Below, piece after piece: positions 6,577 to 64,000 of a stretch of DNA of 64,000 nucleotides (within the stretch, counting starts at the first letter, position 1; the number at the start of each line of letters is the position of its first letter). The notes beneath the pieces are model-generated. The model worked only from the letters and a program-made list of their open reading frames with translations. It was not told where the DNA came from and ran no database searches. The stretch is from a virus, in the IMG/VR virus record IMGVR_UViG_3300042484_002006; one strand, 5' to 3'. A program made the translations under genes and the position numbers.

Positions 6577-7357
6577 TCCTCGTATATTTAATGAGATACC
6601 TAAATTAAAGGGTGGAGAGGTATTCATTACTCCTCAATCTAAATTCCTTATGGATGATTCTTGTCGCCCATATAAGAATAATGGAAATTGGCCTGAATGG
6701 TGGAAGAATCTAAGCGGCAATGAAGGAAGCGTCAAGAGATGCTCTGGTACATCTGACTATTTGGCTTCTGGTTTTACTATTCCACTTTGGGCTAGCCTTA
6801 TGTTTAGACCATCGATAAACGGAAAAATGTGGGAAGTTAAATTTGACTTGACCAATGAAGTAGGGGATTTTGGAATAGAGGGATTTAGTTATGACCAAAC
6901 TGGAGAGTGTCCAGTAAGTCAAATCAGAAAACTGCCCCAAGCAAACTATGTTAAAGTAATTAATCCTTGGCTAATTAAAACTGCACCAGGATGGTCGTGC
7001 CTGTTCCTGCCTACGCTCTGGGATCCAAATCCTAATTATACAATGCTTCCAGCAATAGTTAATACGGATTACTATCATAATGCTCACATGGTAATGAATA
7101 TCTTAACGGATGAACCATTTGAGCTAGAAGCTGGTAAAGCAATCTGGCACGTTATTCCTTTTAAAAGAGAGAAAGATATTAAAATCACGTGGGGCGACGA
7201 AATTGCGTACACTCTTCTTAGATGGCGTGGATTTGGTGGCGCTTTTATGGCTAAAAGACAAAAGAGTAAGTACAAGAGAATGCAGAGAGAAGCAGATGCA
7301 GAAGTTCAAGTGAACAACAAATCTCTTTTTAGTAAAATATTTAAATCTAAGAATTAG
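6542..7357 (+). CDS. conserved phage hypothetical protein
   Basis: 271-aa ORF with PWLIKTAPGWSCLF; start uncertain. Confidence 0.7.
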   Translation: MRKRSQKLKIVSPRIFNEIPKLKGGEVFITPQSKFLMDDSCRPYKNNGNWPEWWKNLSGNEGSVKRCSGTSDYLASGFTIPLWASLMFRPSINGKMWEVKFDLTNEVGDFGIEGFSYDQTGECPVSQIRKLPQANYVKVINPWLIKTAPGWSCLFLPTLWDPNPNYTMLPAIVNTDYYHNAHMVMNILTDEPFELEAGKAIWHVIPFKREKDIKITWGDEIAYTLLRWRGFGGAFMAKRQKSKYKRMQREADAEVQVNNKSLFSKIFKSKN

Positions 7358-8306: not shown

Positions 8307-8913
8307 TCAATTATCTGGAAGAACTCTCTGCTCTCGTCCTGATCCCCAAGTAATTTCTAACGTATTTGAAGAGGAATATTTTTCTTATCTAATTGATACG
8401 TTTAAAAATATTAGAGAAACAAATATTTTAAAATATACAGATTTCTTAGGCAGATACTATGTAAGTACTTTAGATTCTAATATTGACAATCCTTTATTGC
8501 AATCCTTTGATCATATTATTGATCGAGCAAAGATTTTGTTTGGGGATTACATCAAGCCCACGTATGCAGTTTGGGGACTCTACAGAGGATTTAAAGCCGC
8601 TCTCCCAAAGCATATAGATGATAATGCCTGTACCTATACTATGGATGTATGCCTTAGTCAGATCCAAAAGTGGCCAATTTATGTTGAAGATAAAGAATAT
8701 ATACTTGAGCCCAATCAGGCACTGTGTTATTATGGGGAGGATCAATATCATTGGAGAAACCAATTTCCAGAACCAGCTACAAATGAAGTACAAATGATAT
8801 TTTTTCACTTTGCCGAACCAAATCACTGGTTCTTTACTAAGGGTCCAAAATATCAACAAGAGATAGTAAGGTTAAGATGGGAACACGTAAAAAAGAATGG
8901 AATTATAATATGA
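8290..8913 (+). CDS. 2OG-Fe(II) oxygenase-like protein
   Basis: LPKHID, WPIYV, GEDQYHWR, QMIFFHF. Confidence 0.75.
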   Translation: MKKFYDQLSGRTLCSRPDPQVISNVFEEEYFSYLIDTFKNIRETNILKYTDFLGRYYVSTLDSNIDNPLLQSFDHIIDRAKILFGDYIKPTYAVWGLYRGFKAALPKHIDDNACTYTMDVCLSQIQKWPIYVEDKEYILEPNQALCYYGEDQYHWRNQFPEPATNEVQMIFFHFAEPNHWFFTKGPKYQQEIVRLRWEHVKKNGIII

Positions 8914-10053: not shown

Positions 10054-10557
10054 TTATCTGTTGTACGGAGTCGATTTCCAAGTCTCAGGTCCACCAGCAT
10101 TTGATGCCGGCAAACTTTCCCAACGGGCGTGATTCTCAGGGCATTCTTTTCTTGTTTGGTCTGGGCAATTGCCATTTATGTCATAGGCTAAGAAAAAACC
10201 TTGACCGTCCATAGGATTTTGTCCATCTTGTCTGCTTCCATCATCATTAAGAAGATGTCCCCATCCGTCTGTGTGGCACCCTGCTATCAAATTCACTTTT
10301 AACTGAAATTCTTCGGCACTTAACGGAGGAATGCCAAGAAGGCCATCATGGAATTGAATTAACCAAGTCAAATCTTCTGACTTAAAATTCCAATCATATT
10401 TGTGGATGATATCTATTTGCCAGTCCGCTAATGCCCATTTGCCGCATGCGGTTCCATCCATATCACCACCACCACCGTATAGTCGTACGTATCCAGAACC
10501 GCAATCTGAGCGGTGGTAGACAAGTCCATCACCATGTTTTTCTGATGTAATTTTCAT
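10054..10557 (-). CDS. hypothetical Cys-containing protein
   Basis: 167-aa ORF with SD GGAGG. Confidence 0.7.
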   Translation of the reverse strand: MKITSEKHGDGLVYHRSDCGSGYVRLYGGGGDMDGTACGKWALADWQIDIIHKYDWNFKSEDLTWLIQFHDGLLGIPPLSAEEFQLKVNLIAGCHTDGWGHLLNDDGSRQDGQNPMDGQGFFLAYDINGNCPDQTRKECPENHARWESLPASNAGGPETWKSTPYNR

Positions 10558-41739: not shown

Positions 41740-44289
41740 CTAAATAATTGACTTCGTCAACGTCATAGGACGTGTCGGAGGCATAGTGAATATTACTGGA
41801 GAATTTTCAGAATGAGCATTTTGAAAATCAATAGCCTTAGTATAACGCTGGTTAATACCATTGCTGTCTGGCCAATACCATTCGTCATTCTTCATAATCT
41901 GAATCTTGACTTGACCACTAGTATTGTTATACACAGGGATATTGGCTACGCCATAATACTGTAAAGCTGCTTCCAAATAAGGATAAACAAATCGATTCAT
42001 AACGATTTGATCTGTAACCTTACCATACGAAGTTGGAATTTGGATAGTAGCAGAATACAACGCAAGAACAAAATCAAATCTATCTTGAATTCGTTCATAT
42101 GAATTGATAGTATCTACAATATTTTGGTAGAGATTTTCCCAACTATTGCGCTGGATAACTCCAGTGCTGATAGTTTGTTCAGTGCTGTTGTTGTTGAACA
42201 GTTTCATTCTGAAATCACGTAGTACTGGAATTGCAAAGCAATACATGCGACTACCTAAAGTGTGAATGATTTCAACTGGACGTGCGTTTTCTTGAGACCA
42301 AGCACGAATCTGTTGGACATACTCATTGTAAAATGTACTACACAAGTTAATAAGTTGTGCAATTTTACCTTCATAAAGTTCAACAGTTTCATCATGCTTA
42401 AGAAAGCGAGCAAGCCCACGATCATACCAGATGTATTCATCGATAGGTTTACCTGAGTCAATAACTTCGCGCATCATAACATTAGCTTCGTTATCGATAG
42501 CCATAACATCCTGAGCATCGTCAGGATTAATACATTTATCGATAGCATCTTCCATGGAACAAAGTTGTAGTGGACGATGCTTAGCGATTACCATGGAGTG
42601 AGCCATAGATGCGTTTACAAAACCGCCTACATTGCCACCAGCCATAGCAATCGTGATATCACGAAGAACATCATCTTGAGTATATGGACCAGAACGATTT
42701 ACTTTTGGTTTAGATGCAGAAGGCAAACCTGAGTAAACAACCTGCTTAGCAAGAATAGCTTCGCTTAGACGCTTAGGCCAGTTGCGACCATTAACTTTAG
42801 GAAACTTAACTTGAGTTCCATCAGCTTTGTACCAGCTCGGTGACCATGATCCTTCAACATAACGGAACATAGTATACTCGCCATAGCCATTTGGAGATCT
42901 GACTGCGATAACCATTTTCTCGCCGTCGTTATCTCCGCCTTCTATTTCACGATAGAAGACTTTAAAGAAGTCATCTTGATCGTGACCGCCATGAGATTCA
43001 TACATCTCAAGCCAGTCAATATCATTGACGACATGAACTCCAAGTTCATTGATACGAATAATCGTACCTTCTTCAACTTCTACATCATGACCAGCCATGC
43101 GGACGAGCGATTCCGGAACAATCTGTTCATAGACTGAACAAGGAATTGGAATACGTTCGAGCAGTGGTTTAGCGTGAGAGATGGATACAGTTTCAAAAAG
43201 CCACGGAGATTCCGTAATTTTAAATCCTGCAGCAGTCCAACGATAACCAACATAAGCCATGCGAGCACGTGCTTCGTTATCATTGAGATCATCTTTATCA
43301 CGCCAAGTGCGCTGATAGATATACTTCCAGTTAGTTAACAAGTTGCCACTAGTAGCATCTGCATACATTTTCTTGTATTCTTCCGTGAGCCACATTGTCA
43401 TGTCGCTCTTGCGGAATAGTTTAGGAAAGTTGAGAACAGTCTGATCATCGGTGATGACACGAGACTTTGGTCCTTGAGGTTCTGCTAGAAAACGAAATCC
43501 TTCAGTATATCGGATTTCCTTCTTGACATTAGTACGTGAAGTAATAATATCAATTCCCTCAGGGAGATCTGCAACGAATGCATTGCCTTTAATGAATCCA
43601 TCTGCAAAGATAATGCGAGCATTAAAGACAGATGAATCCAGTAGATCCTTCACAAGATTCTTGCGAATGTGAGGATCATAGTAGTAATCTTGACTATCAG
43701 TAGAATTATCAGGATTATATGTAGGTAGATTCTTTACAGATTCCTGAACGATTCTACGACTAATAACGAAACCGCCATCAAGTAATCTTTCGATTACTTC
43801 AGGATTGCGGAATTCGGATGATACGCCCCAATCATCATTTTTATCTACAAAATTATAACGTGAGAAGTCAGTAGGTTCCACGAATTTAATATTGAGATGG
43901 GTAAAATGAGCATTGAGGAGAGTTGGACGATGAAGCGACTTAAGTCTTTTATTGGTCTTAGGACCAGACATAACTTCATAGCCAAGCTTATCAATAATAC
44001 TCATCCAGCCAGGGCTGTCTTCGATAACTACGAAAACAATCTTGTTCTTATCCACAAGAGCATACTGCACTTTAGGATCATTTACAAGATCTTTCGCACG
44101 ATTGAACTCTTGTTGATTTTGAGGAATCGGAAGAGTATAAACTTTATAACCTCCAGAACCTACGGTATCTAGAGCTTGACGCAGGATACCTGCATCATAG
44201 AATCCAAACTGATAGAATTCACCACCACGAAGCGGTCCACCAAGCAGAGCTTGTAACCGCAGGTTGTGCTCATATATTCGACTTGCCAT
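41740..44289 (-). CDS. putative single-chain two-barrel RNA polymerase (YonO/QDE-1-like), paralog A
   Basis: KRL, DGGFVISRRIV, ARIIFADGFIKGNAFV, GGHDQDDFFKV, RSPNGYGEY; collinear with 56030..58429. Confidence 0.7.
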   Translation of the reverse strand: MASRIYEHNLRLQALLGGPLRGGEFYQFGFYDAGILRQALDTVGSGGYKVYTLPIPQNQQEFNRAKDLVNDPKVQYALVDKNKIVFVVIEDSPGWMSIIDKLGYEVMSGPKTNKRLKSLHRPTLLNAHFTHLNIKFVEPTDFSRYNFVDKNDDWGVSSEFRNPEVIERLLDGGFVISRRIVQESVKNLPTYNPDNSTDSQDYYYDPHIRKNLVKDLLDSSVFNARIIFADGFIKGNAFVADLPEGIDIITSRTNVKKEIRYTEGFRFLAEPQGPKSRVITDDQTVLNFPKLFRKSDMTMWLTEEYKKMYADATSGNLLTNWKYIYQRTWRDKDDLNDNEARARMAYVGYRWTAAGFKITESPWLFETVSISHAKPLLERIPIPCSVYEQIVPESLVRMAGHDVEVEEGTIIRINELGVHVVNDIDWLEMYESHGGHDQDDFFKVFYREIEGGDNDGEKMVIAVRSPNGYGEYTMFRYVEGSWSPSWYKADGTQVKFPKVNGRNWPKRLSEAILAKQVVYSGLPSASKPKVNRSGPYTQDDVLRDITIAMAGGNVGGFVNASMAHSMVIAKHRPLQLCSMEDAIDKCINPDDAQDVMAIDNEANVMMREVIDSGKPIDEYIWYDRGLARFLKHDETVELYEGKIAQLINLCSTFYNEYVQQIRAWSQENARPVEIIHTLGSRMYCFAIPVLRDFRMKLFNNNSTEQTISTGVIQRNSWENLYQNIVDTINSYERIQDRFDFVLALYSATIQIPTSYGKVTDQIVMNRFVYPYLEAALQYYGVANIPVYNNTSGQVKIQIMKNDEWYWPDSNGINQRYTKAIDFQNAHSENSPVIFTMPPTRPMTLTKSII

Positions 44290-49963: not shown

Positions 49964-49990
49964 CCCCCCCGCTTCGCGGGGCCCCCCCCC
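49964..49990 (-). other. G/C-run-flanked GNA-triloop hairpin (copy 2)
   Basis: - strand G9-CCCCGC-GAA-GCGGGG-GGG-TAC. Confidence 0.6.
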
Positions 49991-50062
49991 TTATAGAGGT
50001 CTATTTGTAAAAAAAGAAAGTAACTCAGTAGGAGGAATCAAAACCTACTGAGTTACCGATCT

Positions 50063-52151: not shown

Positions 52152-52321
52152 AAGTGTAACTTTCTGTTAGGTGTTTAATAGGGATGTATTTACTTTTGTG
52201 TGCTGGGGCTATGACATTTGTCAAGTCCCTTCTTTTTTATGTTCACAATAGTTTAGAATACTATTGTAAATTTTTTTGTTGAGAGCATAGCGACGTTGCT
52301 ATACTCCCAACAAAGGTTTTA

Positions 52322-52525
52322 TTACTTGATGTCAATGACTTCAGAGTCTGAACTCCGTTGTGCACCTTGATTGAAGCCGGCGATCAAGTCATCTTTTGCA
52401 TTTACAAGAGCCTTCTTGGTCTTTGAGGATGCAGCTTTGCTGACTTTGACAGTCTTTGAAGGCGCATTCTTACTGACGGCTACGGTTTTGCCGAAGAGTT
52501 TTCCGGCTGTTTGTACGATTTTCAT
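52322..52525 (-). CDS. small basic protein
   Basis: ATGA-coupled. Confidence 0.55.
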   Translation of the reverse strand: MKIVQTAGKLFGKTVAVSKNAPSKTVKVSKAASSKTKKALVNAKDDLIAGFNQGAQRSSDSEVIDIK

Positions 52526-52704
52526 GACACTTTCTCTTTCTGTTTGTTGTTGTAGTGGTTGACTAGATTTTGGAATTCAATTGATGGTGTATATTTGATT
52601 TCCATTTTTTGTTTTTGCATTTCTGTGCTGAATGCGTAGATGAATCCAGCAAGGAATGATCCGGCATATACTGCCAGCATTACTTTTAGTGTAATTTTAT
52701 TCAT
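52522..52704 (-). CDS. small membrane protein
   Basis: N-terminal TM segment; SD AAGGAG. Confidence 0.55.
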   Translation of the reverse strand: MNKITLKVMLAVYAGSFLAGFIYAFSTEMQKQKMEIKYTPSIEFQNLVNHYNNKQKEKVS

Positions 52705-53022
52705 TTTTCTCCTTTTGTTAACCCTTCTTTTTGGAAGAGATCTATTTTTTTAAAAAAAAGTTATTACCAAAGATCTATAAACTCCCTCAGGGAGCATCCT
52801 TACCATACGAAAGGGGGGTATATGGCAAGGACGCTCAACCTGGGAGGGAAGATTGGTTGCTGGGAAAGGATCATATGATCCAATCCCTTGATTCCTTCTG
52901 AGAGGAATAGCCCGCAAGAAGGCTAACCAAGAATTTACGCTCTTGGAAACGAGGATTTAATGTATCCGTATATTGCAGCACCGATAATGCCGGATACGAT
53001 TGCACCGATAAAGAATAGCATG

Positions 53023-53352
53023 TTAGGCTACTCTTGGAATTGATGTTTGCTTAGGACTTTCAGCTTGTTGCTTTAGCATTTCATCAAGATGAGCTTTGCG
53101 ACATGCTGAGATTGCATCCTTACGTTCGTAGAACGATGTAGGATTCAATGGTCCAAAGCCTTTTGTTGTGAAGAAATACTTCTTAACGCCGTGATAACGA
53201 CAAACTGAAATATGTCCAATGACTTCGCCTTCAAAACGGACTTTCTGTCCATAGTTAAGACGAGCAACTGCTTTACTGACAATGAAATTAGTTAGATACA
53301 GCATAGCTATACCTAAGGCCATTCCGATAAGTAGGATACCTACTGTGTGCAT
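53023..53352 (-). CDS. membrane-anchored hypothetical protein
   Basis: TM segment; SD AAGGAGG. Confidence 0.65.
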   Translation of the reverse strand: MHTVGILLIGMALGIAMLYLTNFIVSKAVARLNYGQKVRFEGEVIGHISVCRYHGVKKYFFTTKGFGPLNPTSFYERKDAISACRKAHLDEMLKQQAESPKQTSIPRVA

Positions 53353-53572
53353 TTGTGCCTCCTTAGGGCGTTTGTTGGTGGGATTACTCCCCTTCTTTTT
53401 TGTTTGAACAATAGATTAATCTACTATTCTATTTTAAAAATTTAGAATAGATACCTAGGATCTAGGTTCTATTACTAAAAAAGATATGACTTCACCATAT
53501 TGGCGAAGCCCGCACTGGCTCAGCGATCCCGAGCGAAGCGAGGGGTCCTGAGACAGGGCGTTAAAAAATAAG

Positions 53573-53608
53573 GCGAGCCCACCCCAGATTTCTCTGAGGT
53601 GAGCCCGC
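53573..53608 (-). terminator. intrinsic terminator
   Basis: 15-bp stem with G-U pairs on the - strand, then CTTATTTTT. Confidence 0.8.
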
Positions 53609-53633
53609 AAACGGACAGGACTTGGGACGAGAG

Positions 53634-54050
53634 TCAGAACGACTCAACATCCATTTCAACGCTGGCAGGACGTGACTTAGCAAGCCAAGTTCCCATAAGG
53701 GACTCGACTTCATTGTCAACGGTACCGCGGGCAACAACAGTCAACTGTTCCAACCACTCAGCAAGGAAATCCTTGGTGATGGTAACAGTGAACTTGGGCT
53801 TACCAGCGTTATCACCTTTAGCGATGATACCACTGACCAACATTGCCTTCGGGAGATCCCAAAGGATGTTATTGGTAGCCTTGCCATCGGCACCTTTCGC
53901 CAACATGACCAACAAGCCCTCACGGACACCATTGGGAACATTGACAAAGACTGGGCAATCCCAATCTGCGCCATCGCGACGGGCAACTCGAACTGCCAAG
54001 TCACCCGCATTGACGAATACAGGTATAAACCTGCTTGTGGACTTACTCAT
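53634..54050 (-). CDS. hypothetical protein
   Basis: 138-aa ORF between an SD-like sequence and the terminator. Confidence 0.7.
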   Translation of the reverse strand: MSKSTSRFIPVFVNAGDLAVRVARRDGADWDCPVFVNVPNGVREGLLVMLAKGADGKATNNILWDLPKAMLVSGIIAKGDNAGKPKFTVTITKDFLAEWLEQLTVVARGTVDNEVESLMGTWLAKSRPASVEMDVESF

Positions 54051-54389
54051 AACAGACCCCTTTCAAAGGTCTCAAGGGAAGGCACGGTGCCAACCCTTCT
54101 TTTTCTCAGTGGACGACTGAGCGCGTTTGGGACTACTCCCTTCTTTTCACAGAAGGAAACAACCCCTTCTTTTCACCGATATGCTCCCAGAGGGATTTAG
54201 AATGTCAGTGAAGAGACTTGACTAGGAACCTATCCTTGGTCGCGGAGGGATTTAGAATAAGTACCTATCATAAAAAAAGAATTTGAGTGTAATGGTCTAT
54301 GATAAAAAAAGAACTAATATTCTATTATAAAAAAGGAAGTCCCCGAGGATTTCTCCCCGGGAACAACCTTTCGATAACTTACTAAACTA

Positions 54390-54953
54390 CTAACTAAGCA
54401 GCTCAGTAGGGTTGATTACAACCATGGGCTTTTGCTTGTTGCGAGCATAACCCACACAGTTTCCCGTGCCACCAGACGTGCCATCCCAAATAGCAACCAC
54501 ACTGTCAGCGTGATCTACCATCCAGATGTTCCTGTCTTGCATGACCTTTGCTGTGGTGTATTCACCATTGTAGACGTATACAACACCGTCTTCAATAGTT
54601 TCACCGTCGCTAGCAAGAGTACGAGCTAGATCTGCATCTGCAAATCCGCACATCTTCTTGTAGGTCAACTTGCTTTCAGCAGGCCATTTAATGTCCTGAT
54701 TTCGGCAAGGTGCTGCAATCATGAACCGAAGACCCATCTTATGAGCCTCCCGTGCTGCATCGGTATCAACGCCAAGAGCGCCTCCACTGATGACAACCAC
54801 TTCATGTGTCTCACCATACTTGGCCACTGCTCGTGCAAGAGCGTTGTTAATGGCTTCAGTAACAGCAACACGCATTGGTGTCTTTGCATTGTATCCCCCA
54901 ATTTTATTGGGACGATGACCCGTAAAGGCTACTTTATACAATGGTTTGTTCAT
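54390..54953 (-). CDS. SLOG-family protein (YspA/DUF1273-like)
   Basis: VAFTGHRP, SGGALGVD, RNIWMVD, WDGTSGGT. Confidence 0.88.
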   Translation of the reverse strand: MNKPLYKVAFTGHRPNKIGGYNAKTPMRVAVTEAINNALARAVAKYGETHEVVVISGGALGVDTDAAREAHKMGLRFMIAAPCRNQDIKWPAESKLTYKKMCGFADADLARTLASDGETIEDGVVYVYNGEYTTAKVMQDRNIWMVDHADSVVAIWDGTSGGTGNCVGYARNKQKPMVVINPTELLS

Positions 54954-55054
54954 AGCACTTTCCTTTCTTTTTTGGACTGACCCGAATGGTCTATCCTCAA
55001 AGAAAGAAGTCCCTCCTACACTGGTTATGTAGTGGGACTTCAGTCTTCTTCAGC

Positions 55055-55285
55055 TCACTCCTGGTCGAAGAGTGTGGGCTGGCTGTCTCGAAGGTTCTTG
55101 AGATTGCGTTTGTCAGACGCTTTCTTCTTTCCCTGCTCATTGCGCTTCAACCACGTCTCGTAACAGACGGGGCAGAGCGTCATCCTGTAAGGGTAGGCGA
55201 CGAATCGACCAGTACCCTTGGGGATGAAACGCTCACACCCATCTGCCTTGAGTGCGCAGACCGTGTTGTGATGGTTATAGGCCAT
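55055..55285 (-). CDS. small Cys-containing protein
   Basis: ATGA-coupled; CPVC. Confidence 0.55.
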   Translation of the reverse strand: MAYNHHNTVCALKADGCERFIPKGTGRFVAYPYRMTLCPVCYETWLKRNEQGKKKASDKRNLKNLRDSQPTLFDQE

Positions 55286-55656
55286 CAGGAACGATGCTGC
55301 TCGCAGGTGTTGCGGAATGCAATGGCATCGGCCTTGGTCATCTCGACCTTGTGGCTGTTCTTGCCCCAACCGCAGGTAACCATGACTTTCTTGTCAAGGT
55401 CATTGATTACTGCAGTAGGACGAGCTGTCCACTTGGTGTTGACGACGGTCACGCCAAAGCATGCGCGCACTTCTTGAACAGTGCTGTGCTTGCCACTGCA
55501 ATTACCGCAGGCGATGCCCTTGGTCTGTGCTGGCGTTGGTGCCGGTGCCATCTCGACGACAGGCTTCACCACGGGCTTTGAACCCTTGATGAAGACTGCC
55601 TTGCCATTGATGACCGTGTACTGACGGCCATCCTTTGCTGTCTTGATTGCTTCCAT
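55285..55656 (-). CDS. Zn-finger-like protein
   Basis: CGNC..KH...VRAC; SD AAGGAGG. Confidence 0.65.
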   Translation of the reverse strand: MEAIKTAKDGRQYTVINGKAVFIKGSKPVVKPVVEMAPAPTPAQTKGIACGNCSGKHSTVQEVRACFGVTVVNTKWTARPTAVINDLDKKVMVTCGWGKNSHKVEMTKADAIAFRNTCEQHRS

Positions 55657-56029
55657 TTTTGTGCCTCCTTGGCTGATTCCATTTGTCAAGGTTGGAATTC
55701 CTGTCAGGCATTAGCTCCTGCTGCGTCACCCATATTTTCTAATAACTACTATTAAGCGCTCAGGTTCTGCGCTTGAGGCCAATGAACTATCCTCAAAAAA
55801 AGGAGGTTGCCAGGAATTTCTTCCCAACAACCTCCTCATTTAGCGGTCTTTTTAATCCTACAGGTACTGCTTTCAATGTCGCAGACGAGAGCTACCTCGT
55901 TCATAGCAAATTAATTTTATAAGGGTAGCCCCCAGGAAACAGTATTTCTACTGAATCCCAGGGGCATCCTTCTTCCAGTTAGTTATGTAAACCTAACTAG
56001 GATGTTCTCCTATCTCAAGGAGTACTGCG

Positions 56030-58429
56030 TCAGCTCCCTATGTCCTTAATAATCGGACTTGCTGATGCGGGCAACCATGAATAGGTTCCGTCTTGAACAC
56101 GCTTCAAAGCACGTACATAGAACATGTACGGTTGCATTTCGCTCTTAGCGTTGAACGAGAACAGCCACTGATCATGGTTTGCTCCTGGCATTTGAGCCTT
56201 CGCGAGGATAGCTTGGTGAGCTAAGCACAAGATCTTACGATCAGTACGTTCTTCACCATGCTCTTCATCGCTCTTGGTCATCAGCTCTACGAAGTAATCA
56301 CACCAGGTGAGACTACTGTTTCGAGCTGCTTGATGAACCTCTTTAATCTTAACCAGTTTCTTCCAAGCGTTTGCGCGCTCTTCTGGAGTCCAGTTGATGT
56401 TCGCCAGCACTTCGGGCATAACGACTTGACTATTCAGCCAATCCGTCATTTCCTTAATGTACTGACGCACAAGGTTCTCACGCTCCTTATGGAGTGTGAC
56501 CCAAGGCGATGCTTCCTCGGATGAGGTTTCCCATAACTCTGCCAACGGTGCTGGCATCCGGGTCATGAACCAGAAGCGGTCCATTTCCCAGTTGAGCTTT
56601 TCGCCCATCGTGGTGAATGTGTTGTCGATCCATTGCTTGATCAACTGCACATCCTCCAGAGAAGCTTGCCCCTGCTGAAGAACATCAACGATGTCTTCGT
56701 TAGTTGCAACCAACTCCTCAATGGGCTTCCCGAACTGAGCGTACCAGATCATCTTTGGGATGACCGTTCCGCCCATTCCTGGTGGAAAAGCTTGTGATGC
56801 AAGCCGAACAGCCGACTCATCCTCCAGCGAGAACACGTCACCACGCTTACGTGGATTAGTGATCGCCGGAAGTGAACCGATGTTCAGATGCTTCTTCAGC
56901 TTTGTGAACTGCGGAACCTTACTAGATAGTTCCTGCAGATCCACCAGCGGGGGCTCAGCACCATAGTCGTGGAATACCGGTCCGGTCTCCTTAATCGGAA
57001 TCATCGCATACTCACCGAAATCATTCGGATTGCGCATGACAATTCCCATCAACTTGACCTTGCCCTTACTATCTAACACACGGCGCACATGCACCTTAAC
57101 TGTGTCATCTAGGTCCGGGCCTCCCCAGTTCTCAAAGTTATCCTTCAAGAACTGGCCAGGCACCACGAAGCTGTGGGTAGCCTCATGAAAGAAGCCTTCG
57201 TTACCAGCGGGCATCTTAAACCCACCGATTTCGAGGACTTCCTTGGTATAGATGTGAGCGGCATAAGCCCACGACACTGGAAACCAGTGACGAGACTTGT
57301 CCATCCACACCTCACCCTGACGATTGTCGCCCAACAGCTGCTTTCGCAAACCATTAACCGACAGGAACATCAAGGTTTGACTGGCATTCAGGGGTACACC
57401 CAACTTGCTAAGTTGAGCAACCGCATGCTGAATCTTGCCAACTAGGCCACGATCCTTTGCATACTTTACCTCCGACTCTTCATGTAGGATAGACCCACTG
57501 CTTTCAGCGAGTTTCTCCATCCATTCAGAGCGTTTGCCAGCCACCAAGTCCTCCTTGAATTGCTTCAAAGAGGATTCCAAGGTAGCCAGGAGTGAGTCGT
57601 GGTCATACAACCCTTTCACATCCCAGTAAATGGAATGTGTCAGATCGTCAGACTTCACAGGAATCGTCCCGTAAGACGGCTCCAGTGTGACCCATTGCCA
57701 CCCGCTTGTTCGGATCTCAGCCTTGATATTCGGAGCAAACGTCCGAACTTCGTAGCCTTTCATCTGCTTACGAGGAGTGATCACGGCATTGCCTTTGATC
57801 TCTCCAAGCGCGCAGAGCATCCGGAACTGCACAACGACAAGACTGCCATTGCGAATGTTCCAGATCATCCGAGCCCGCCAAGCACGCGTAGCCGAAGTAT
57901 TCGACTTCACGCACTTGATTGCGAGCCCACGGGTGATGAACGTCGCACCGTCCACATATTCGTCAGGCATGCCCAACGCTTTGTGATCGATAACGTCGAC
58001 CTCAAGAGCCTTGTCCTCGGGGATGTAGAGCCACATGCACGACATGCGCACGAGCTCTACAAGCCTCTTCGACATCTTCTTGGAATTCCCGATCAGAAGA
58101 CCGATTTCCTTGAATGCCGAGAGCCAGCCATTGTTGCCCTTAATGCGCAACATGTACTGATCCGAGGAGTTACTCCAACGAATTACTTCGCTAGAGAATA
58201 GCTCCTTATTGGTCACCGCAGGTGCGCTTTCCACCGATCCAACCTTACGGCTGAACAGCTTACGCACCTCGACGCGGTACTTCCCACCCCAGAAGTGCTC
58301 CAGGAACGCTGGGACGTATTGTCCTCCCTGAAACTCTTCTTTGATGTTGGTACCCGGGACGTGAGCCGCACCAGTCAGCAGCCGAAGCCACCTTCCAGCG
58401 AGGACCACAATGCCATGGAAATACGGCAT
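56030..58429 (-). CDS. putative single-chain two-barrel RNA polymerase (YonO/QDE-1-like), paralog B
   Basis: KMSKRL, DGATFITRGLA, VQFRMLCALGEIKGNAVI, GGPDLDDTVKVHV, RNPNDFGEY; start set at ATG 58429 after a GGGAG SD. Confidence 0.7.
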   Translation of the reverse strand: MPYFHGIVVLAGRWLRLLTGAAHVPGTNIKEEFQGGQYVPAFLEHFWGGKYRVEVRKLFSRKVGSVESAPAVTNKELFSSEVIRWSNSSDQYMLRIKGNNGWLSAFKEIGLLIGNSKKMSKRLVELVRMSCMWLYIPEDKALEVDVIDHKALGMPDEYVDGATFITRGLAIKCVKSNTSATRAWRARMIWNIRNGSLVVVQFRMLCALGEIKGNAVITPRKQMKGYEVRTFAPNIKAEIRTSGWQWVTLEPSYGTIPVKSDDLTHSIYWDVKGLYDHDSLLATLESSLKQFKEDLVAGKRSEWMEKLAESSGSILHEESEVKYAKDRGLVGKIQHAVAQLSKLGVPLNASQTLMFLSVNGLRKQLLGDNRQGEVWMDKSRHWFPVSWAYAAHIYTKEVLEIGGFKMPAGNEGFFHEATHSFVVPGQFLKDNFENWGGPDLDDTVKVHVRRVLDSKGKVKLMGIVMRNPNDFGEYAMIPIKETGPVFHDYGAEPPLVDLQELSSKVPQFTKLKKHLNIGSLPAITNPRKRGDVFSLEDESAVRLASQAFPPGMGGTVIPKMIWYAQFGKPIEELVATNEDIVDVLQQGQASLEDVQLIKQWIDNTFTTMGEKLNWEMDRFWFMTRMPAPLAELWETSSEEASPWVTLHKERENLVRQYIKEMTDWLNSQVVMPEVLANINWTPEERANAWKKLVKIKEVHQAARNSSLTWCDYFVELMTKSDEEHGEERTDRKILCLAHQAILAKAQMPGANHDQWLFSFNAKSEMQPYMFYVRALKRVQDGTYSWLPASASPIIKDIGS

Positions 58430-58722
58430 CTCTCCCTCCCTTTCTGTGTGCTTTTCTACAGAGCACATACTGTTGGCCCTGGCGTGGAACCTTACGTGTG
58501 ACTAAAGGCCAATGGCCTATCGTCAAAAAAAGGAATCTAAGGTCAGTAAGCAATACTCTTAGGTGAAGGGTCTATTATTACTAAATTAAGCAATTGAGTA
58601 TCAACAATGATATTCATTACATTTCTACCTCCTGTTTAAGGGCCAACGATCTATTGGCAAAAAAAGGAAGTCCCCAGGGATTTCTCCCTAGGGACAACCT
58701 TTTACTTATTTATTGACTATTA

Positions 58723-58941
58723 CTATTGTGCGTCGTTGATATTTTGTTCGCACACTGGACAAATCATCCAGTTTCCAACAAACGAATAGCAGATTTCACT
58801 GCCTTGGGCGACTAAAGCCCTAGTGCATTCAACACATGCAATTTTATCCATCTGATAGTCTAAGACATTGAAATGCCCTAAACTGTGTGGGACTTTGGGG
58901 TACAAAACTGTATCCCAATTTGTTGAATATTTCTTCTTCAT
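58723..58941 (-). CDS. small Zn-ribbon protein
   Basis: CVEC...CPVC; SD GGAGG. Confidence 0.7.
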   Translation of the reverse strand: MKKKYSTNWDTVLYPKVPHSLGHFNVLDYQMDKIACVECTRALVAQGSEICYSFVGNWMICPVCEQNINDAQ

Positions 58942-59059
58942 AGTTTGCTGACCTCCATCAGCTAGTGATCTAGACCACTTTGGTCTATCTCAAAAAAAGG
59001 AAGTTCCCGGGAAATATCTCCCGAGAACCTCCTTCTTTCACTTACTTAATTTTTCTTAC

Positions 59060-59335
59060 TTACTTACTTGGTTTGCCGTATTCCCTTCTCTTTCTTTCAG
59101 CTTCCTCTTCTTGTTGGCGCATGTACTGCTCTTGAAGTTCAAAGCGTGCCAAGTCATACTCCGCTTGCGCTTCAGCCTCCGCCATCAATATAGAAACGGT
59201 GTGCTTCCATTCTTCCAGTTCAGCTTCCAGTTCTTGACACTTCAAACATTTAGGGACTACCTGCCTAGTAAGCTCCGAATCTTCAAGATCTGGAACCCAC
59301 ATAGGATCTTCATCCCATGGTCCATTAACTGACAT
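59060..59335 (-). CDS. coiled-coil hypothetical protein
   Basis: CLKC; directly after a repeat and SD. Confidence 0.7.
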   Translation of the reverse strand: MSVNGPWDEDPMWVPDLEDSELTRQVVPKCLKCQELEAELEEWKHTVSILMAEAEAQAEYDLARFELQEQYMRQQEEEAERKRREYGKPSK

Positions 59336-59451
59336 GATTTCCTTTCTTGGACTGGCCCCAGTGGCCTATCCTCAAAAAAAGGGTAGGGTCCTTACCCCAG
59401 AGATCCTAAGATCCCCAGGGTAAGGAGCGGTTTCATGGACAACGAGGTTTG

Positions 59452-59616
59452 TCAGTCCTCGCTTTTTGCTGCGATCCAACCGCCAATAACGCAATAACCC
59501 GTTATGACAGTCAGCATAAACACAATGAACCAGCCTGGGCTAGCCATTGTAATTACACCGAACATCGCCAAGAACAAGGCGATGTGGATAGCAACCATGG
59601 TTTTGTTAAGAGCCAT
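59452..59616 (-). CDS. 54-aa two-TM membrane protein (not in the ORF track)
   Basis: MALNKTMVAI...; paralog of 59733..59897. Confidence 0.75.
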   Translation of the reverse strand: MALNKTMVAIHIALFLAMFGVITMASPGWFIVFMLTVITGYCVIGGWIAAKSED

Positions 59617-59732
59617 GGTTTCCTTTCCTGGACTGGCCTGGATGGCCTATCCTCAAAAAAAAGGGTAGGGTCCTTACCCCAGGGATCCGAAGATCCCCAG
59701 GGTAAGGAACGGTTTCATGGACAGAGAGAGAA

Positions 59733-59897
59733 CTAGTCCCTCTCTATGCTGCTCAGCACGGTGCCGACTATAGCGTAAGCTATAATCACACTGGGGAGAC
59801 CAACAATGATCCACCCGAAGGTGGCCTTTGCTAGTAGGCCCCACATTGCCGCTGCTACGACAATGGTGATGGCAACCATGGTTTTGTAAAAAGCCAT
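59733..59897 (-). CDS. 54-aa two-TM membrane protein
   Basis: MAFYKTMVAI...; true start after the repeat SD. Confidence 0.75.
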   Translation of the reverse strand: MAFYKTMVAITIVVAAAMWGLLAKATFGWIIVGLPSVIIAYAIVGTVLSSIERD

Positions 59898-59982
59898 GGC
59901 TTCCTTTCTGGACTGGCCCGAGTGGCCTATCCTCAAAAAAAGGAAGTTCCCAGGGATTTCTCCCCAGGAACAACCTTCTTTG

Positions 59983-60360
59983 TTAGGCTTCCCACCTTTC
60001 TCTCATGCGCTGCACCATTTCAGGTGAAACGCCGTGGATGTTACCGTACGACCCGGTACACACGATTACCTCGTGATCTGCACCAAGCTCTTGTGCTAAG
60101 TTAATATACTTAGCAAACTCCCACGTCCGGGTGAACGTGTTAGCTACGGCTACCACTGGGGTACCCATAACAAGAGCTTCTCGCACTGCCTCAAAGCACT
60201 TTTCGTGCACTTCAGCAAGGCGAGAGGGGTCAAATTCGTACTTACCCGAAGCGTCTACCATATAGGTATCTGCTTCAAAGCACGCATTGGGTGCCATCTC
60301 GGCAGCCAACGTACTTTTACCCGAACCGGGTAAGCCACGAATGATTAGGAGCTTTGTCAT
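59983..60360 (-). CDS. P-loop kinase (AAA_33/PNK/N4BP2-like)
   Basis: IIRGLPGSGKST, EAD, NTF, HGV. Confidence 0.85.
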   Translation of the reverse strand: MTKLLIIRGLPGSGKSTLAAEMAPNACFEADTYMVDASGKYEFDPSRLAEVHEKCFEAVREALVMGTPVVAVANTFTRTWEFAKYINLAQELGADHEVIVCTGSYGNIHGVSPEMVQRMRERWEA

Positions 60361-60539
60361 TGCTCCCTCTCCTTTCTTGGACTGGCCTGGATGGCCTATC
60401 CTCAAAAAAAAGGTAGGGTCTCTACCCTAGGGATCCGAAGATCCCCAGGGTAGGGACGAGTTGTCTCCATTCTGTTCCCAGGGTAGGAGTGTTCACCCCG
60501 GCTACTCTCTTTCAAGTAGCGGCTTGTGGGACGAGGTTC

Positions 60540-60716
60540 TCAGAGAGAATCGATACACTGCCCGTGAACGAGCGGCATAGATTCATCCCTGGTCCGGTGA
60601 ACCGTTGTTCCAAGTTCCCCTGTAGGGAGCTTGTACCAGTGATCCACCACCTCTTCTACAGTTATGTCCTGTCCGCAAAGCGAACAAACACCAACCGAGT
60701 CCCAGGTGGGAGCCAT
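60540..60716 (-). CDS. small Zn-binding-like protein
   Basis: CSLC...HGQC; SD GAAAGGAGGT. Confidence 0.65.
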   Translation of the reverse strand: MAPTWDSVGVCSLCGQDITVEEVVDHWYKLPTGELGTTVHRTRDESMPLVHGQCIDSL

Positions 60717-60853
60717 TATTTCACCTCCTTTCGTTGGTGAGTTGTGGACTGACCCCAATGGTCTATCCTCAAAAAAAAGGAGTTCCCTCCTACGCTGGAT
60801 GCGTAAGAGAGAACTCCAATTCTTTTGTTAAGCTGGACTCATCAGCTTAGTTG

Positions 60854-61300
60854 TCAGATTACAGTTTGAGCGCGTACAACTCGCCCAAATTGATCCTCCA
60901 ACCTGTCACCTAACAGATTGATTTCACTCTCTGAAATCTGATTACTGATGGTGATTGTGGGCAAGCTGTTTACCTGCCATTCAACTACGTAAAGGGCAGA
61001 ATCAATCTGCTCAATGTCATAGCCCATTTGGCATCCGATGTGGAATTGGTTGCCGTGATTTTCCACTCGTTCAGCTTCATTAACGATTGTCCAATCCCAG
61101 TACGAGATATTGGACATTGCATTCCACCACTGATTGGTGGGGTTGGGCTGGTGGTGGCAATCACGACCACCCATGCGCACCGTGGTTGAGACGAGACCGT
61201 CAACAACGATCACCTCTGATGCGAGCATGGTGATGCCATTGCTCATGATGATATTTCCCAAAATCCTGAGCATCAGGATTCTGATTTGCATTTCGTTCAT
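60854..61300 (-). CDS. hypothetical protein
   Basis: SD AGGAGG; start uncertain. Confidence 0.55.
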   Translation of the reverse strand: MNEMQIRILMLRILGNIIMSNGITMLASEVIVVDGLVSTTVRMGGRDCHHQPNPTNQWWNAMSNISYWDWTIVNEAERVENHGNQFHIGCQMGYDIEQIDSALYVVEWQVNSLPTITISNQISESEINLLGDRLEDQFGRVVRAQTVI

Positions 61301-61579
61301 AATTCCTCCTAGGAATCATAATACGCAGTTAAGGCTCGCGTAGTCTCCTAGTCTTTTAAATTGCAGGTGTTCTATAGTCTGCAACGCTAACAATGTGACA
61401 AACATCGCCTGGTTTTATACTAAACAGATACCAGATTTAAGGACAATGGTCTATCCTCAAAAAAGGAAGTTTCCTCCAGGATTCGAAAATCCCAGAGGAA
61501 ACAACCTCTTTAGCGCTTCTGTTCCCAAGTTGCGCCAACTCGGCCACTCTCTTACAAGTGGCGGTGTCCAATCGCCTGA

Positions 61580-61819
61580 TTATTCCCAGGAGATCGAGGA
61601 TCCAGACCTCAGGGACTCAATAGCAATTTCTGCTATCAATCCCCGATCATCTGCATTCACAATCTTATGAAGATTCTGAACGAGATGTTCTGGGTCCATC
61701 GATCCAGTCCAATCGGATTCCTCTGCGCTAGGAAGACCTAGTTGGCAGAGGACATAGTCAAAATGACTATATGTCCAAGAGGCTCGATCCTCGTTTCCGA
61801 GGAAGATGGAGACACCCAT
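61580..61819 (-). CDS. hypothetical protein
   Basis: SD GAAAGGAGGT. Confidence 0.7.
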   Translation of the reverse strand: MGVSIFLGNEDRASWTYSHFDYVLCQLGLPSAEESDWTGSMDPEHLVQNLHKIVNADDRGLIAEIAIESLRSGSSISWE

Positions 61820-61990
61820 GTTTTCACCTCCTTTCTGGGGTGATATAGGGAGGCCGAATGCCTATCCCAAAAAAAGGAAGTTTCCCCAGGATCCGAAGAT
61901 CCCAGGGAAACAACCTCTTTAGTGATTTTTCTGTTCCCAAGAGTCACTACTTCTTGGCCACCCGTGTCGTGGCAGCTTGGTTGATTGTGA

Positions 61991-62272
61991 TCAGTCCTTT
62001 GTCAAAAGAATCAACTGACCAGCGTAAACCTTCGTTCCGTAGATACCGGTAACAAAGTATCTTGCGGAAGTCAGATCGCCTTCACAGTGATCTTCTAACA
62101 AAGTCCAGATTGAATCCCCCTGCTCTACGAACGCCGCAGACACATCACATGTGTAAGCGGGCTCTGTTGCTTCACGGTGGATTCCGCGAGCAACAAAGAA
62201 CAGAAGAACAACAATCAACGCAACGAGAATACGCCTTGCGACGTAGACTCGCCTTGCTGGCTTTGCCTTCAT
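61991..62272 (-). CDS. membrane-anchored LysM-domain protein (YneA/ChiZ-like architecture)
   Basis: basic N-terminus, TM segment, VEQGDSIW...VYAGQLILL. Confidence 0.7.
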   Translation of the reverse strand: MKAKPARRVYVARRILVALIVVLLFFVARGIHREATEPAYTCDVSAAFVEQGDSIWTLLEDHCEGDLTSARYFVTGIYGTKVYAGQLILLTKD

Positions 62273-62423
62273 TGTTTCACCTCCTTTCCGAGGTATTATG
62301 GACGGGCTTGTTGCCTATCCTCAAAAAAAGAAGTTCCCCGGAATCCGAAGATCCCGAGGAACAACTTTCTTCTATAGTGTGTCTTTGCTAGTGCGCAAGG
62401 TAAGACACTACCCTCCCACTACC

Positions 62424-62714
62424 TCAAATAAAGGTAGTGTTCTTTATGATCTCATTGGGATCAGTTCCCAAGAGATGCATAAAGACAGGGTTGAGAAGAC
62501 GAATCTCCTCGACCCTGTCACCCAAGAGGACAACTGCGTACAAAGCGAATATATCGCCTGCACAAGCAATGTGCTCAAAGGTGACTCCATCGGCCTGGTA
62601 GCCAATGGAGCGACCATCGTGACCCTCACGGATCACGACGATCTTTCCATCAAGGGGTATTAATCCCACGATGGAATTGTTGGTGGTTGCCCACCATTGG
62701 ATATCGAGTTTCAT
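62424..62714 (-). CDS. hypothetical protein
   Basis: SD AAAGGAGG. Confidence 0.6.
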   Translation of the reverse strand: MKLDIQWWATTNNSIVGLIPLDGKIVVIREGHDGRSIGYQADGVTFEHIACAGDIFALYAVVLLGDRVEEIRLLNPVFMHLLGTDPNEIIKNTTFI

Positions 62715-62893
62715 CTCGACCTCCTTTGTCACTTTGCCGGTGTTGGCAGGGCTGTGACTCATGCCCTTGGACTGGCGCGGTTGGCCTATCCTCAAAAAAA
62801 GAAGTTCCCAGGGACCTAAATCCCCGGGAACAACTTTTTCTATAATGCGTCTTTGCTAGTATGCAAGGTAAAACGCTGCCCTTTGTCCAGTCA

Positions 62894-63133
62894 CTACCCT
62901 AAGGTAATGACTGGACGGATCGCAATGCCACGAAGGCGCTGCGATGAGAACTGGGTGAACACGATGATCGTTTGACCATCCTGCTCATCCAATTCCGGGA
63001 TGGAAATTGAGCCGTAAAATTCGACCCAATCTCCCTCGGGGTTCTCAACATGACCATAAGTCATGCTGGACCCGATTTCGACAACAAAGGTATTACCCTT
63101 TATTGTCCTGAATTTGTGGATTCCCATTTTCAT
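62894..63133 (-). CDS. hypothetical protein
   Basis: directly after a repeat and SD. Confidence 0.65.
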   Translation of the reverse strand: MKMGIHKFRTIKGNTFVVEIGSSMTYGHVENPEGDWVEFYGSISIPELDEQDGQTIIVFTQFSSQRLRGIAIRPVITLG

Positions 63134-63226
63134 GGTTACCCCCTTCTGGACTGATCCCATTGATCTATCCTCAAAAAAAAAGTTTCCCCAGGATCCGAAG
63201 ACCCCAGGGAAACAACTTTTTCTAAA

Positions 63227-63325
63227 TTACTTCTTCTTGTTATAGAAGAATAACGGCGCAATCGCCATTATGCAGCACACCACGAATATGGTGTTGCCAA
63301 TCATAAAGAACATGTTATCTGACAT
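63227..63325 (-). CDS. 32-aa single-TM peptide
   Basis: after a repeat and SD; hydrophobic core with a KKK tail. Confidence 0.55.
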   Translation of the reverse strand: MSDNMFFMIGNTIFVVCCIMAIAPLFFYNKKK

Positions 63326-63458
63326 AACAATTCCCCTTTCAAGAGAATGAGTTAGGAGCCTTTCTCCTATCCTCAAAAAAAGAAGTTTCCCCCAAGGCAA
63401 ATGCCCCAGGGGAAACAACTTCTTTCAGGCAGGATGGGTCATCATCCTACCTAATTAA

Positions 63459-63683
63459 CTAGAGGTCGTCATCCTCGTCTGACTTAAATGGGTTAAACCC
63501 ACTAAAGTCAAACTTGTTGTTGAGCTTAACACCCAACACAACGATGCCAACAAGGATCAGAAGACCCCAGTTGACAAAGCCCGATACTACACCGAGCAAC
63601 CCGAACACTACCTTACTTGTTGGTGTAAATACCAACAAGAGAACTAGTGCGAAGTACTTATTGTTCTTAATGAATTGCAACAT
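63459..63683 (-). CDS. small membrane protein
   Basis: hydrophobic hairpin; SD GGAGG. Confidence 0.65.
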   Translation of the reverse strand: MLQFIKNNKYFALVLLLVFTPTSKVVFGLLGVVSGFVNWGLLILVGIVVLGVKLNNKFDFSGFNPFKSDEDDDL

Positions 63684-64000
63684 GATTTCCTCCAAGAAAC
63701 ATGCCTTTGTTCAACTTAACGTATTGAACGTGATTATTACGAATGGTAAAACCATCTTCCATGTCTACTCTTTAACGCGAGTGAATCCGTTGGCCCATGG
63801 CGAACCTTACTAAAGGACAATGACCTATCCTCAAAAAAGGAAGTTCCCCAGAATCATAAGATCCTGAGGAACCACCTTCTCCGTACCTACCCTACTAGGT
63901 ACTGCTTATATCAGATACGGATATAGTTCTTCGTATCTTCTGACAACTTAACAGTGCGTCCACCGTTAGCTGTCAGATGCTTGAATGATGCATGTGCACC

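Follow-up and report, generated by a model that had tools for sequence, protein, structure and literature searches.

What starts transcription of each gene in a run of small genes when a strong terminator stands before every one of them? The question is raised by the 64,000-nucleotide stretch of DNA of IMG/VR virus record IMGVR_UViG_3300042484_002006 (hereafter, the window, meaning this whole stretch), where a short repeat fronts the genes of a minus-strand array of cassettes. An earlier note on this DNA had proposed that the core of the repeat, a covarying hairpin, was a structure-based promoter for the phage RNA polymerase (RNAP). Our analysis supports one half of that proposal and not the other. 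The repeat likely contains a phage-specific, non-sigma-70 promoter, to which the terminators, a box that is the only conserved sequence before the ribosome site, and the two-barrel RNAPs encoded by the phage all point. In contrast, the sense-strand fold, the variable loops and the sequence-type invariants of the repeat speak against an N4-like DNA hairpin recognised by its structure, and the hairpin most likely folds in the mRNA just after the start site of the phage polymerase.

The array comprises 17 units, variants counted, all on the minus strand, with the G of a conserved ATAG placed from 63825 to 54991 (54.99-63.83 kb). Each unit fronts one small gene and is made of a terminator hairpin, a T-run, the box, the covarying hairpin, a Shine-Dalgarno (SD) site and the open reading frame (ORF). 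Every intergenic gap at 54-64 kb showed the same order of parts on the minus strand: a GC-rich hairpin of 11-17 bp, 6-9 T, TGAGGATAG, a short hairpin, the SD and the start codon. In the compact copies, the ATG follows the terminator stem after only ~45 nucleotides (nt), which are wholly occupied by box, hairpin and SD. The exact 12-mer TTTTGAGGATAG was found 12 times, always on the minus strand (55787-63836), a count reached by none of the shuffles, and a looser box pattern gave 62 overlapping matches in the window versus 0.44 in shuffles. A simple scan detected 40 terminator-like sites in the array against 9.4 expected, the strong ones (11-17 bp) directly preceding each box. Degenerate copies of the box extend down to 50.0 kb. 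The array is also richer in GC (46-51%) than the remaining window (31-40%), with a step from 31-42% to 46-51% at the window 54000 boundary, where the cassettes start.

Arrays with the unit were also present on at least eight contigs of related uncultured phages; elsewhere in the ~400 kb searched, the unit was absent. Pattern scans of IMG/VR identified six contigs of 40-180 kb bearing the same arrays; CheckV completeness of these relatives was 19-85%, pointing to genome sizes of about 200 kb. A low-GC freshwater actinobacterium is the probable host.

The box proved to be longer than the earlier note had seen, spanning ~28 nt with GGGGAA, a pyrimidine tract, T4-8 and then R-N3-ATAG-R-C-C. The consensus of 50 non-redundant copies aligned on ATAG reads GGGGAA, ~1 base, YTYC, T6, G-A-G-g, ATAG and R-C-C; the T-run and ATAG columns of this alignment were imposed by the search pattern that collected the copies, and independent evidence of conservation comes from the flanking columns only. 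With that same proviso, ATAG is invariant among the 50 copies whatever its pairing state. At the sequence level, the tract YTYC-T4-8 followed by a purine is present in all copies, and the four bases between the T-run and ATAG differ by class (GAGG, GAGT, GACA, GACG, GCCA, ACCA, GATT, TGGG). The box is separate from the SD and lies 25-140 nt upstream of the start codon. As the T-run and the purine/pyrimidine tract preceding it persist where no terminator stem adjoins (relatives G001 at 10059, G004 at 8416, 9282 and 11020, and G005 at 6924), the T-run is not a mere terminator tail, and the box appears from its sequence to be autonomous from the stem.

Two host-type readings of the box were rejected. 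The earlier note had judged a sigma-70 reading, with TTGAGG as -35, to be poor, and this was borne out: sigma-70-like sites are depleted in the array (6 versus 10.7 expected) and only one of them stands at a box. The actinobacterial -10 reading GANNAT fails since its A is replaced in the TGGG, GGGG and TGGC variants, whereas ATAG never varies.

The hairpin that follows covaries strongly. In 18 compact copies, the two-tier stem is paired in 93.8% of cases, with a covariation of 0.336 versus 0.187 +/- 0.024 in shuffled sets (0/500 reaching it), and pairing drops to 10-69% once the partners are slid. In 35 distinct copies aligned with a covariance model, 91.6% of the cells are paired, and 23 cells changed on both sides versus 5.6 expected (0/500 shuffles). 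The claim that the sequence changes while pairing is kept was thus confirmed in both sets, each above all of its 500 shuffles. The second inner pair is A-U in 16 copies and G-C in 15, and the G of ATAG opens the inner stem in nearly all of them (G-C in 32/35, G-U in 3/35). When inner 5' arms were exchanged among copies that share a box, the native arm was favoured 42 times versus 13 (p = 4e-6), and swapping the whole box (-9 to 0) between copies cost 2.2 kcal/mol, the native combination being better in 43/50 (p = 2e-7). Therefore, the four "variable" bases are matched to each copy's own downstream flank, as seen in the pairs GGAT..GTCC, GAGT..ACTC, TGAC..GTCA, GACG..GTCA, TTGCC..GGCAA and TGGGAT..ATCTCA. 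In a class with 12-nt loops, the partner of the box lies 35-40 nt away, immediately before the ATG (GACAA..TTGTC, GATTA..TAATC, TTACC..GGTAA). Overall, loops measure 3, 4, 5, 8 and 12 nt and stems 4-9 bp in two tiers, and loops of the UUCG type are present in relatives.

This fold belongs to the mRNA-sense strand, because G-U/U-G pairs exceed A-C/C-A pairs 37 to 4 in the aligned stems (18 to 4 without the fixed T-G pair); the coding-strand-only outer T-G pair of the earlier note therefore holds and generalises. In addition, the minimum free energy is -10.6 kcal/mol on the sense strand versus -8.5 kcal/mol on its complement, being lower in 60/76 copies (p = 6e-9). If an RNA start is assumed at -7 with respect to the G of ATAG, 47/50 copies have at most 2 unpaired nt at the 5' end, versus 20 in shuffles.

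All nine hairpins listed by the earlier note were found at their positions, with plus-strand letters that are the reverse complement of the coding strand: GGAC-T-GGCC-N5-GGCC-T-ATCC at 59349, 59630, 59910 and 60379, GACC/GGTC at 60746 and 54974, GATC/GATC at 63148, TAGACCA/TGGTCTA at 58971 and TAGGAG/CTCCTA at 63353. The complete set of units, each given with the position of the G of its ATAG, is as follows:

54265..63880, minus strand: the cassette array, GC-richer, with single-gene units
63805..63839, minus strand: box and hairpin, G 63825; short form GGATAG/TTGTCC with a 4-nt loop, then a ~130-nt leader
63345..63381, minus strand: box and hairpin, G 63367; inner TAGGAG/CTCCTA, outer TGAG/CTCA
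63145..63179, minus strand: box and hairpin, G 63165; inner GATC/GATC, outer GGAT/GTCC
62766..62800, minus strand: box and hairpin, G 62786; inner GGC/GCC, outer GGAT/GTCC
62297..62329, minus strand: box and hairpin, G 62315; inner GGC/GCC, loop AACAA, outer GGAT/GTCC
61840..61876, minus strand: box variant TGGGATAG, G 61862; inner AGGC/GCCT, and GGGA pairs with TCCC
61431..61465, minus strand: box and hairpin, G 61451; short form GGATAG/TTGTCC, long leader after it
60743..60777, minus strand: box and hairpin, G 60763; inner GACC/GGTC, outer GGAT/GTCC
60376..60410, minus strand: box and hairpin, G 60396; inner GGCC/GGCC
59907..59941, minus strand: box and hairpin, G 59927; inner GGCC/GGCC
59627..59661, minus strand: box and hairpin, G 59647; inner GGCC/GGCC
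59346..59380, minus strand: box and hairpin, G 59366; inner GGCC/GGCC, ATG 31 nt past the G
58960..58999, minus strand: box variant TGAGATAG, G 58985; stem TAGACCA/TGGTCTA with a 3-nt loop
58625..58665, minus strand: box variant GCCAATAG, G 58651; GCCAAT pairs with GTTGGC, absent from the earlier note
58490..58531, minus strand: box variant GACGATAG, G 58517, upstream of a polymerase gene; inner AGGCC/GGCCT, outer TGAC/GTCA
55765..55801, minus strand: box, G 55787; weak hairpin GAGG/CCTC, long leader after it
54971..55005, minus strand: box and hairpin, G 54991; inner GACC/GGTC, interrupted T-run (CTTTCTTT)
54265..54335, minus strand: three degenerate boxes (T-run, TATN, ATAG), G 54322, 54297 and 54265, after the last strong terminator
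49990..50020, minus strand: outlying box (T-run, ACAA, ATAG), G 50001, after a terminator in a low-GC region

Candidate readers of the box are encoded within the window, both of them two-barrel enzymes:

56030..58468, minus strand: two-barrel single-chain RNA polymerase P0001, 812 amino acids (aa), inside the array; likely start Met at 58429
41740..44289, minus strand: 849-aa paralog of P0001, outside the array

Sequence searches of Pfam, PHROGs and the PDB with two large orphan proteins, the 812-aa one included, returned nothing, and no polymerase match in Pfam or PHROG was obtained among the large ORFs tested. However, the AlphaFold2 (AF2) model of the 812-aa protein (predicted local distance difference test, pLDDT, 86.6; predicted TM-score, pTM, 0.81) was matched by Foldseek to QDE-1 and plant RDR2 at E ~1e-6 (QDE-1 with probability 1.0) and to the P23-45-type non-virion polymerase gp64 (8f72) at E = 3.6e-4. 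According to this model, the protein has the double-psi beta-barrel polymerase fold of QDE-1, YonO and gp64. The motifs GGxDxDD and RNPN are invariant, as are G449, G450, D452, D454 and D455 in 35 sequences, and we infer from the sequence that the protein is catalytic, with a metal loop DxDD and not the canonical DxDGD. More than 120 unnamed homologs are present in freshwater metagenomes, and the 849-aa protein, a diverged paralog whose metal loop likewise reads GGxDxDD, aligned with the 812-aa one with an hhalign probability of 99.2% (E = 7e-20).

A third polymerase may exist in relative G002, where a 1623-aa ORF of the tail module (L259:10860-15728, minus strand) lies beside ORFs of 2215 and 3731 aa. 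Its GGFDLDD..RQP motifs are invariant (GGxDxDD..RxP in 20 homologs), and its profile-profile match with the 812-aa family is weak (E = 1.3e-3, probability 18%), with both barrel motifs collinear. The AF2 model of its residues 300-1100 was poor (pLDDT 58); Foldseek against the PDB gave no match for this model at E <= 0.001, and VIA-align wide gave helical-hairpin look-alikes only. On sequence grounds this protein may be a virion polymerase, so that genomes of this phage family encode at least two, perhaps three, paralogous polymerases.

The covariance model, built on the 18 compact copies, produced 47 matches in 290 kb, all on the array strand, 45 of them inside arrays and the other two, weak, just beyond one; a further 114 kb of G002 gave zero matches. 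Contigs with homologs of the 812-aa polymerase at 56%, 47% and 36% identity have the same gene neighbourhood with drifted boxes, namely CTTTTA-N3-ATAG, YTTTATGGGTAG and a single TTTTATGACTAG. In the relative with the 47%-identical polymerase, ATAG has become GTAG and the 3' partner has changed from GTCC to RCCC to match. Comparison of the array with 50,697 phage records by megablast produced zero matches, Rfam at E <= 1 over 53-64 kb gave only chance-level matches, and a description of these phages or their polymerases was not found in a literature search.

How, then, is each gene started? As a strong terminator stands before every gene, a separate start is required for each of them, and the box is the candidate promoter because it is the only conserved sequence before the ribosome site. 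We put at about even the chances that the box is a phage-polymerase promoter of the pre-early type of phage P23-45, with RNA starting at the first purine past the T-run and the hairpin as a 5'-terminal leader stem-loop. Under this scheme, drawn by analogy, a strong intrinsic-type terminator would close the upstream gene and the box would act as a compact promoter for a phage-encoded, sigma-independent two-barrel RNAP. As in P23-45, its reader would be a virion-delivered polymerase that transcribes pre-early genes, including that of the 812-aa polymerase. The start is placed at -7, i.e., 7 nt before the G of ATAG, because the style of the tract matches P23-45 and the polymerase gene sits behind a box; with that start, the covarying hairpin would be transcribed first, giving each monocistronic mRNA a 5'-terminal two-tier stem-loop. 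This stem-loop would bury the 5' end, leaving at most 2 nt unpaired, and would leave a few nt between itself and the ribosome site. It would probably serve to shield the mRNA against 5'-end-dependent decay and to insulate the ribosome site from whichever cassette lies upstream. ATAG would be contacted by the polymerase or by another protein.

Several points weigh against this scheme. The sole RNA data come from one freshwater metatranscriptome, in the form of contigs of parts of the relatives that carry no start, end or strand information, and whose uncovered stretches have no meaning; they cannot show 5' ends, and the start position is a prediction. In the transcript, ATAG would occupy +5 to +8, where a stabiliser role does not explain its invariance, and therefore a second reader is needed, either downstream contacts of the polymerase or an RNA-binding protein. 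Pairing between one or two T's of the T-run and downstream A's is possible in several copies and would shift the 5' end upstream; it was set aside as a sign of such an end, as these A's are part of the start codon or of the A-rich SD region. Moreover, the virion polymerase demanded by the analogy is a candidate with a weak profile match and a poor model. Finally, the first array gene (169 aa; the end of the window falls inside it) has no box in G002. Another promoter type must therefore start the array, and read-through from it is possible. Just past the point corresponding to the window end (L248:10540-11040 in G002), a non-coding stretch of ~500 bp beside a divergent gene precedes this box-less gene.

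Such read-through is the premise of an explanation that we regard as unlikely, in which the repeat is an RNA processing or regulatory site with no promoter. On a long RNA from a promoter upstream of the first gene, an endoribonuclease of host or phage, or an RNA-binding protein, would recognise the U-run and AUAG beside the stem and cut or bind between the two hairpins. The outcome would be monocistronic mRNAs with 3' and 5' hairpins, like those produced by RNase III on T7 early RNA. The box-less first gene agrees with this, and so does the RNA-like fold, which takes in box bases and has its 5' edge where the U-run ends, a natural place for cleavage of single-stranded RNA. The invariance of ATAG irrespective of pairing would fit a protein that reads RNA sequence, and the metatranscriptome contigs of relatives span terminator, T-run and box, though DNA carry-over would look alike. 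However, 17 consecutive strong terminators with a hairpin plus U7-8 should leave almost no read-through unless the polymerase ignores them, and a purely protective 3' hairpin needs no U-tract. A cleavage site also leaves unexplained the conservation, with or without a stem, of the purine/pyrimidine tract that precedes the T-run, and this tract resembles mapped P23-45 promoters.

A structure-assisted DNA promoter, the reading closest to that of the earlier note, is in our view improbable. Here, the hairpin would extrude on the non-template strand and assist promoter melting or recognition by a sigma-less two-barrel polymerase, the G-T wobbles destabilising the template-strand twin of the hairpin and leaving the template free, with the RNA start placed past the hairpin, immediately ahead of the SD. 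The ATAG-R-C-C core would correspond to the CTAGRGGC motif (-16 to -9) of P23-45 gp64 promoters, which ATAGRCC resembles, and the 812-aa enzyme is structurally related to gp64. A hairpin on the non-template strand predicts the sense-strand asymmetry equally well, and the geometry would place a short leader (15-20 nt) in front of the SD. Yet, with loops of 3-12 nt and stems of 4-9 bp, a start measured from the structure would wander, and one class pairs the box with the ATG-adjacent spacer 35-40 nt off, which is implausible in a DNA bubble. The UUCG-type loops of the relatives also argue against it, and the defining features of N4 promoters are missing: the geometry that the earlier note had borrowed from N4 is contradicted by the sense-stranded fold, the range of loop sizes, and the invariance of T-run and ATAG, which indicates sequence rather than shape. 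If true, this reading would define a structure-assisted promoter class distinct from that of N4, and the first promoter logic described for the two-barrel polymerase family in actinobacterial phages.

A T7-style register of the promoter is slightly more doubtful still. The T-run would serve as an A/T recognition element upstream of the start, transcription would begin at the G of ATA|G, and only the inner stem would be 5'-terminal. This would agree with that G being the first base of the inner stem (G-C in 32 and G-U in 3 of 35), with the invariant ATAG, and with the four bases between T-run and ATAG being the least conserved part of the box. Nevertheless, the outer stem formed by these four bases covaries with the 3' flank (e.g., pair 5/32), which is unexplained if they are not transcribed.

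It is highly improbable that the repeats are chiefly recombination substrates, PeSL-like or attC-like (see below for PeSLs), kept for cassette shuffling, with the hairpin as a by-product or a folded recombination site. Shuffling itself is evident. Cassette order varies among the window, G001, G002, G004 and G006 by whole units, with single-cassette insertions, replacements and one tandem duplication, and the BLAST similarity between the window and its relatives is mosaic. In the freshwater RNA library, contigs of relatives change cassette exactly at the border between T-run and box (window 61466 and 63173), which suggests recombination junctions at the repeat, and a RecA gene flanks the array in relatives (~2 kb upstream of the first array gene in G002). 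However, homologous shuffling needs only a conserved sequence, leaving compensatory changes, strand-specific wobbles and pairing with the start-codon region unexplained, and no site-specific recombinase was seen adjoining the arrays. A PeSL-like shuffling role probably coexists with a role in expression. A dyad operator for the MerR-type protein, another suggestion of the earlier note, was rejected, as the stems change sequence yet keep pairing and carry strand-specific wobbles, where an operator would conserve sequence.

Other features of the cassettes were observed along the array. The terminator stems (e.g., 61880-61911, 63182-63213 and 59946-59971, minus strand) have UUCG- or GNRA-like tetraloops and group into a few near-identical sequence families, and the A/G-rich run 5' of them pairs with the T-run, so that the terminators look bidirectional. 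Four units present long leaders of 90-150 nt in place of the compact form (63695-63825, 58429-58517, 61300-61451 and 55689-55787, minus strand). The leader at 63825 and that at 58517, which precedes the polymerase gene, have CCTTTAGT..AAGGTTC..GGGCCAAC in common, and other leaders recur in relatives, e.g., GCCAAGTC..GTGTGGGC in L254; they may be leader RNAs or tiny ORFs. Positions 59345-59940 (minus strand) correspond to a tandem duplication of a whole cassette, giving two paralogous membrane proteins of 54 aa, one of them replaced in G002.

Just downstream of the array, a second motif, AAAAAGAAGGG(G), was detected five times versus 0.47 expected on the minus strand (window 52226-54174), upstream of genes and often 20-30 nt past a recurring TATTCTAAA. 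In relatives L253 and L255, both words reappear in front of genes that lie downstream of the arrays, and the motif may represent a second promoter class for another polymerase. A further motif found after the arrays of relatives, AACAAAGTGGGG, was not found in the window.

To our knowledge, P23-45 is essentially the only system in which the promoters of such single-chain two-barrel phage enzymes are known. The promoter of YonO is still undefined (PMC5467207). This uncultured freshwater phage family supplies ~100 naturally occurring versions of a single compact candidate promoter. Each version is joined to a leader in which covariation reveals the pairing partners, and the same genomes encode paralogous polymerases, so that polymerase/promoter specificity and the role of the leader hairpin become open to in vitro tests that need no cultured host. 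Outside the T4 group, the array also clearly illustrates promoter/terminator cassettes as gene-shuffling units, and its combination of terminator, promoter and insulating hairpin has possible use as a genetic part.

In P23-45, the two-barrel virion RNA polymerase gp96, fused to the tape measure, starts at the final A of ..TTATTCCTTTA, a promoter that often immediately follows a conserved hairpin-plus-T terminator. Among the pre-early genes transcribed by gp96 is that of a second, non-virion two-barrel polymerase, gp64, whose own promoter core is CTAGRGGC at -16 to -9 (PMC10770324). Features in common are many short genes, each with a compact, strongly conserved pyrimidine/T-rich motif before a purine and directly after a terminator hairpin; paralogous two-barrel polymerases in both phages; and a box variant, GACGATAG, upstream of the two-barrel polymerase gene at 56030-58468. 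The tract, near-identical in style to that promoter, reads CTTCC, T's and purine here and YTCYTTTA in relatives, and one copy in L253, ATTCCTTTA followed by ATGATAG, is identical over 9 nt to the P23-45 core. In contrast, starts were mapped there and are predicted here, where the virion polymerase is a candidate; the box here has an extra, invariant ATAG 4 nt past the T-run and a covarying hairpin, neither described for P23-45; and the host there is Thermus instead of, probably, a low-GC freshwater actinobacterium.

The promoter early stem-loops (PeSLs) of T4-type phages are composite cassettes of an early promoter and a stem-loop terminator (PMC2839356, PMC4122927). As here, these repeated terminator-plus-promoter units flank small variable early genes and serve as modular shuffling points. 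However, PeSL promoters are host sigma-70 early promoters and lack a covarying leader hairpin, whereas in our array sigma-70 signals are depleted and the box is specific to the phage lineage.

The promoter of the N4 virion RNAP, a T7-like enzyme, is a template-strand hairpin with a stem of 5-7 bp and a 3-nt loop with conserved purines, the start being fixed relative to the loop, and it requires gyrase and single-stranded DNA-binding protein (PMC4496689). Both systems would have early genes read by a phage enzyme, and both have inverted repeats with conserved and variable positions where pairing of the variable ones matters. Here, however, it is the sense strand that folds, loop length varies between 3 and 12 nt, and the polymerases belong to the two-barrel type.

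Stem-loops at the 5' terminus, with at most ~2-4 unpaired nt before them, stabilise mRNAs in the leaders of E. coli ompA and T7 gene 10. The present hairpin would be similarly placed within ~2 nt of the presumed 5' end and upstream of a free ribosome site, although this 5' end is predicted and the element is repeated before nearly every gene of the module and fused to the box.

The Start-Associated Sequences (SAS) of Cluster K mycobacteriophages (GGGATAGGAGCCC) are 13-bp motifs that include the SD and lie 3-7 bp from the start codon; their function is unknown and thought to act on expression, and no support was found by their authors for RNA hairpins in extended SAS (PMC3203893). Like the box, they are repeated in one orientation before many non-structural actinobacteriophage genes, with the core GGATAGG in common, but the box is separate from the SD, with the G of its ATAG at least 31 nt before the ATG, and its flanks covary strongly. 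Set beside these systems, the array is a combination of promoters of the P23-45 pre-early type, cassettes of the PeSL type and 5' leader hairpins, in an undescribed family of freshwater phages.

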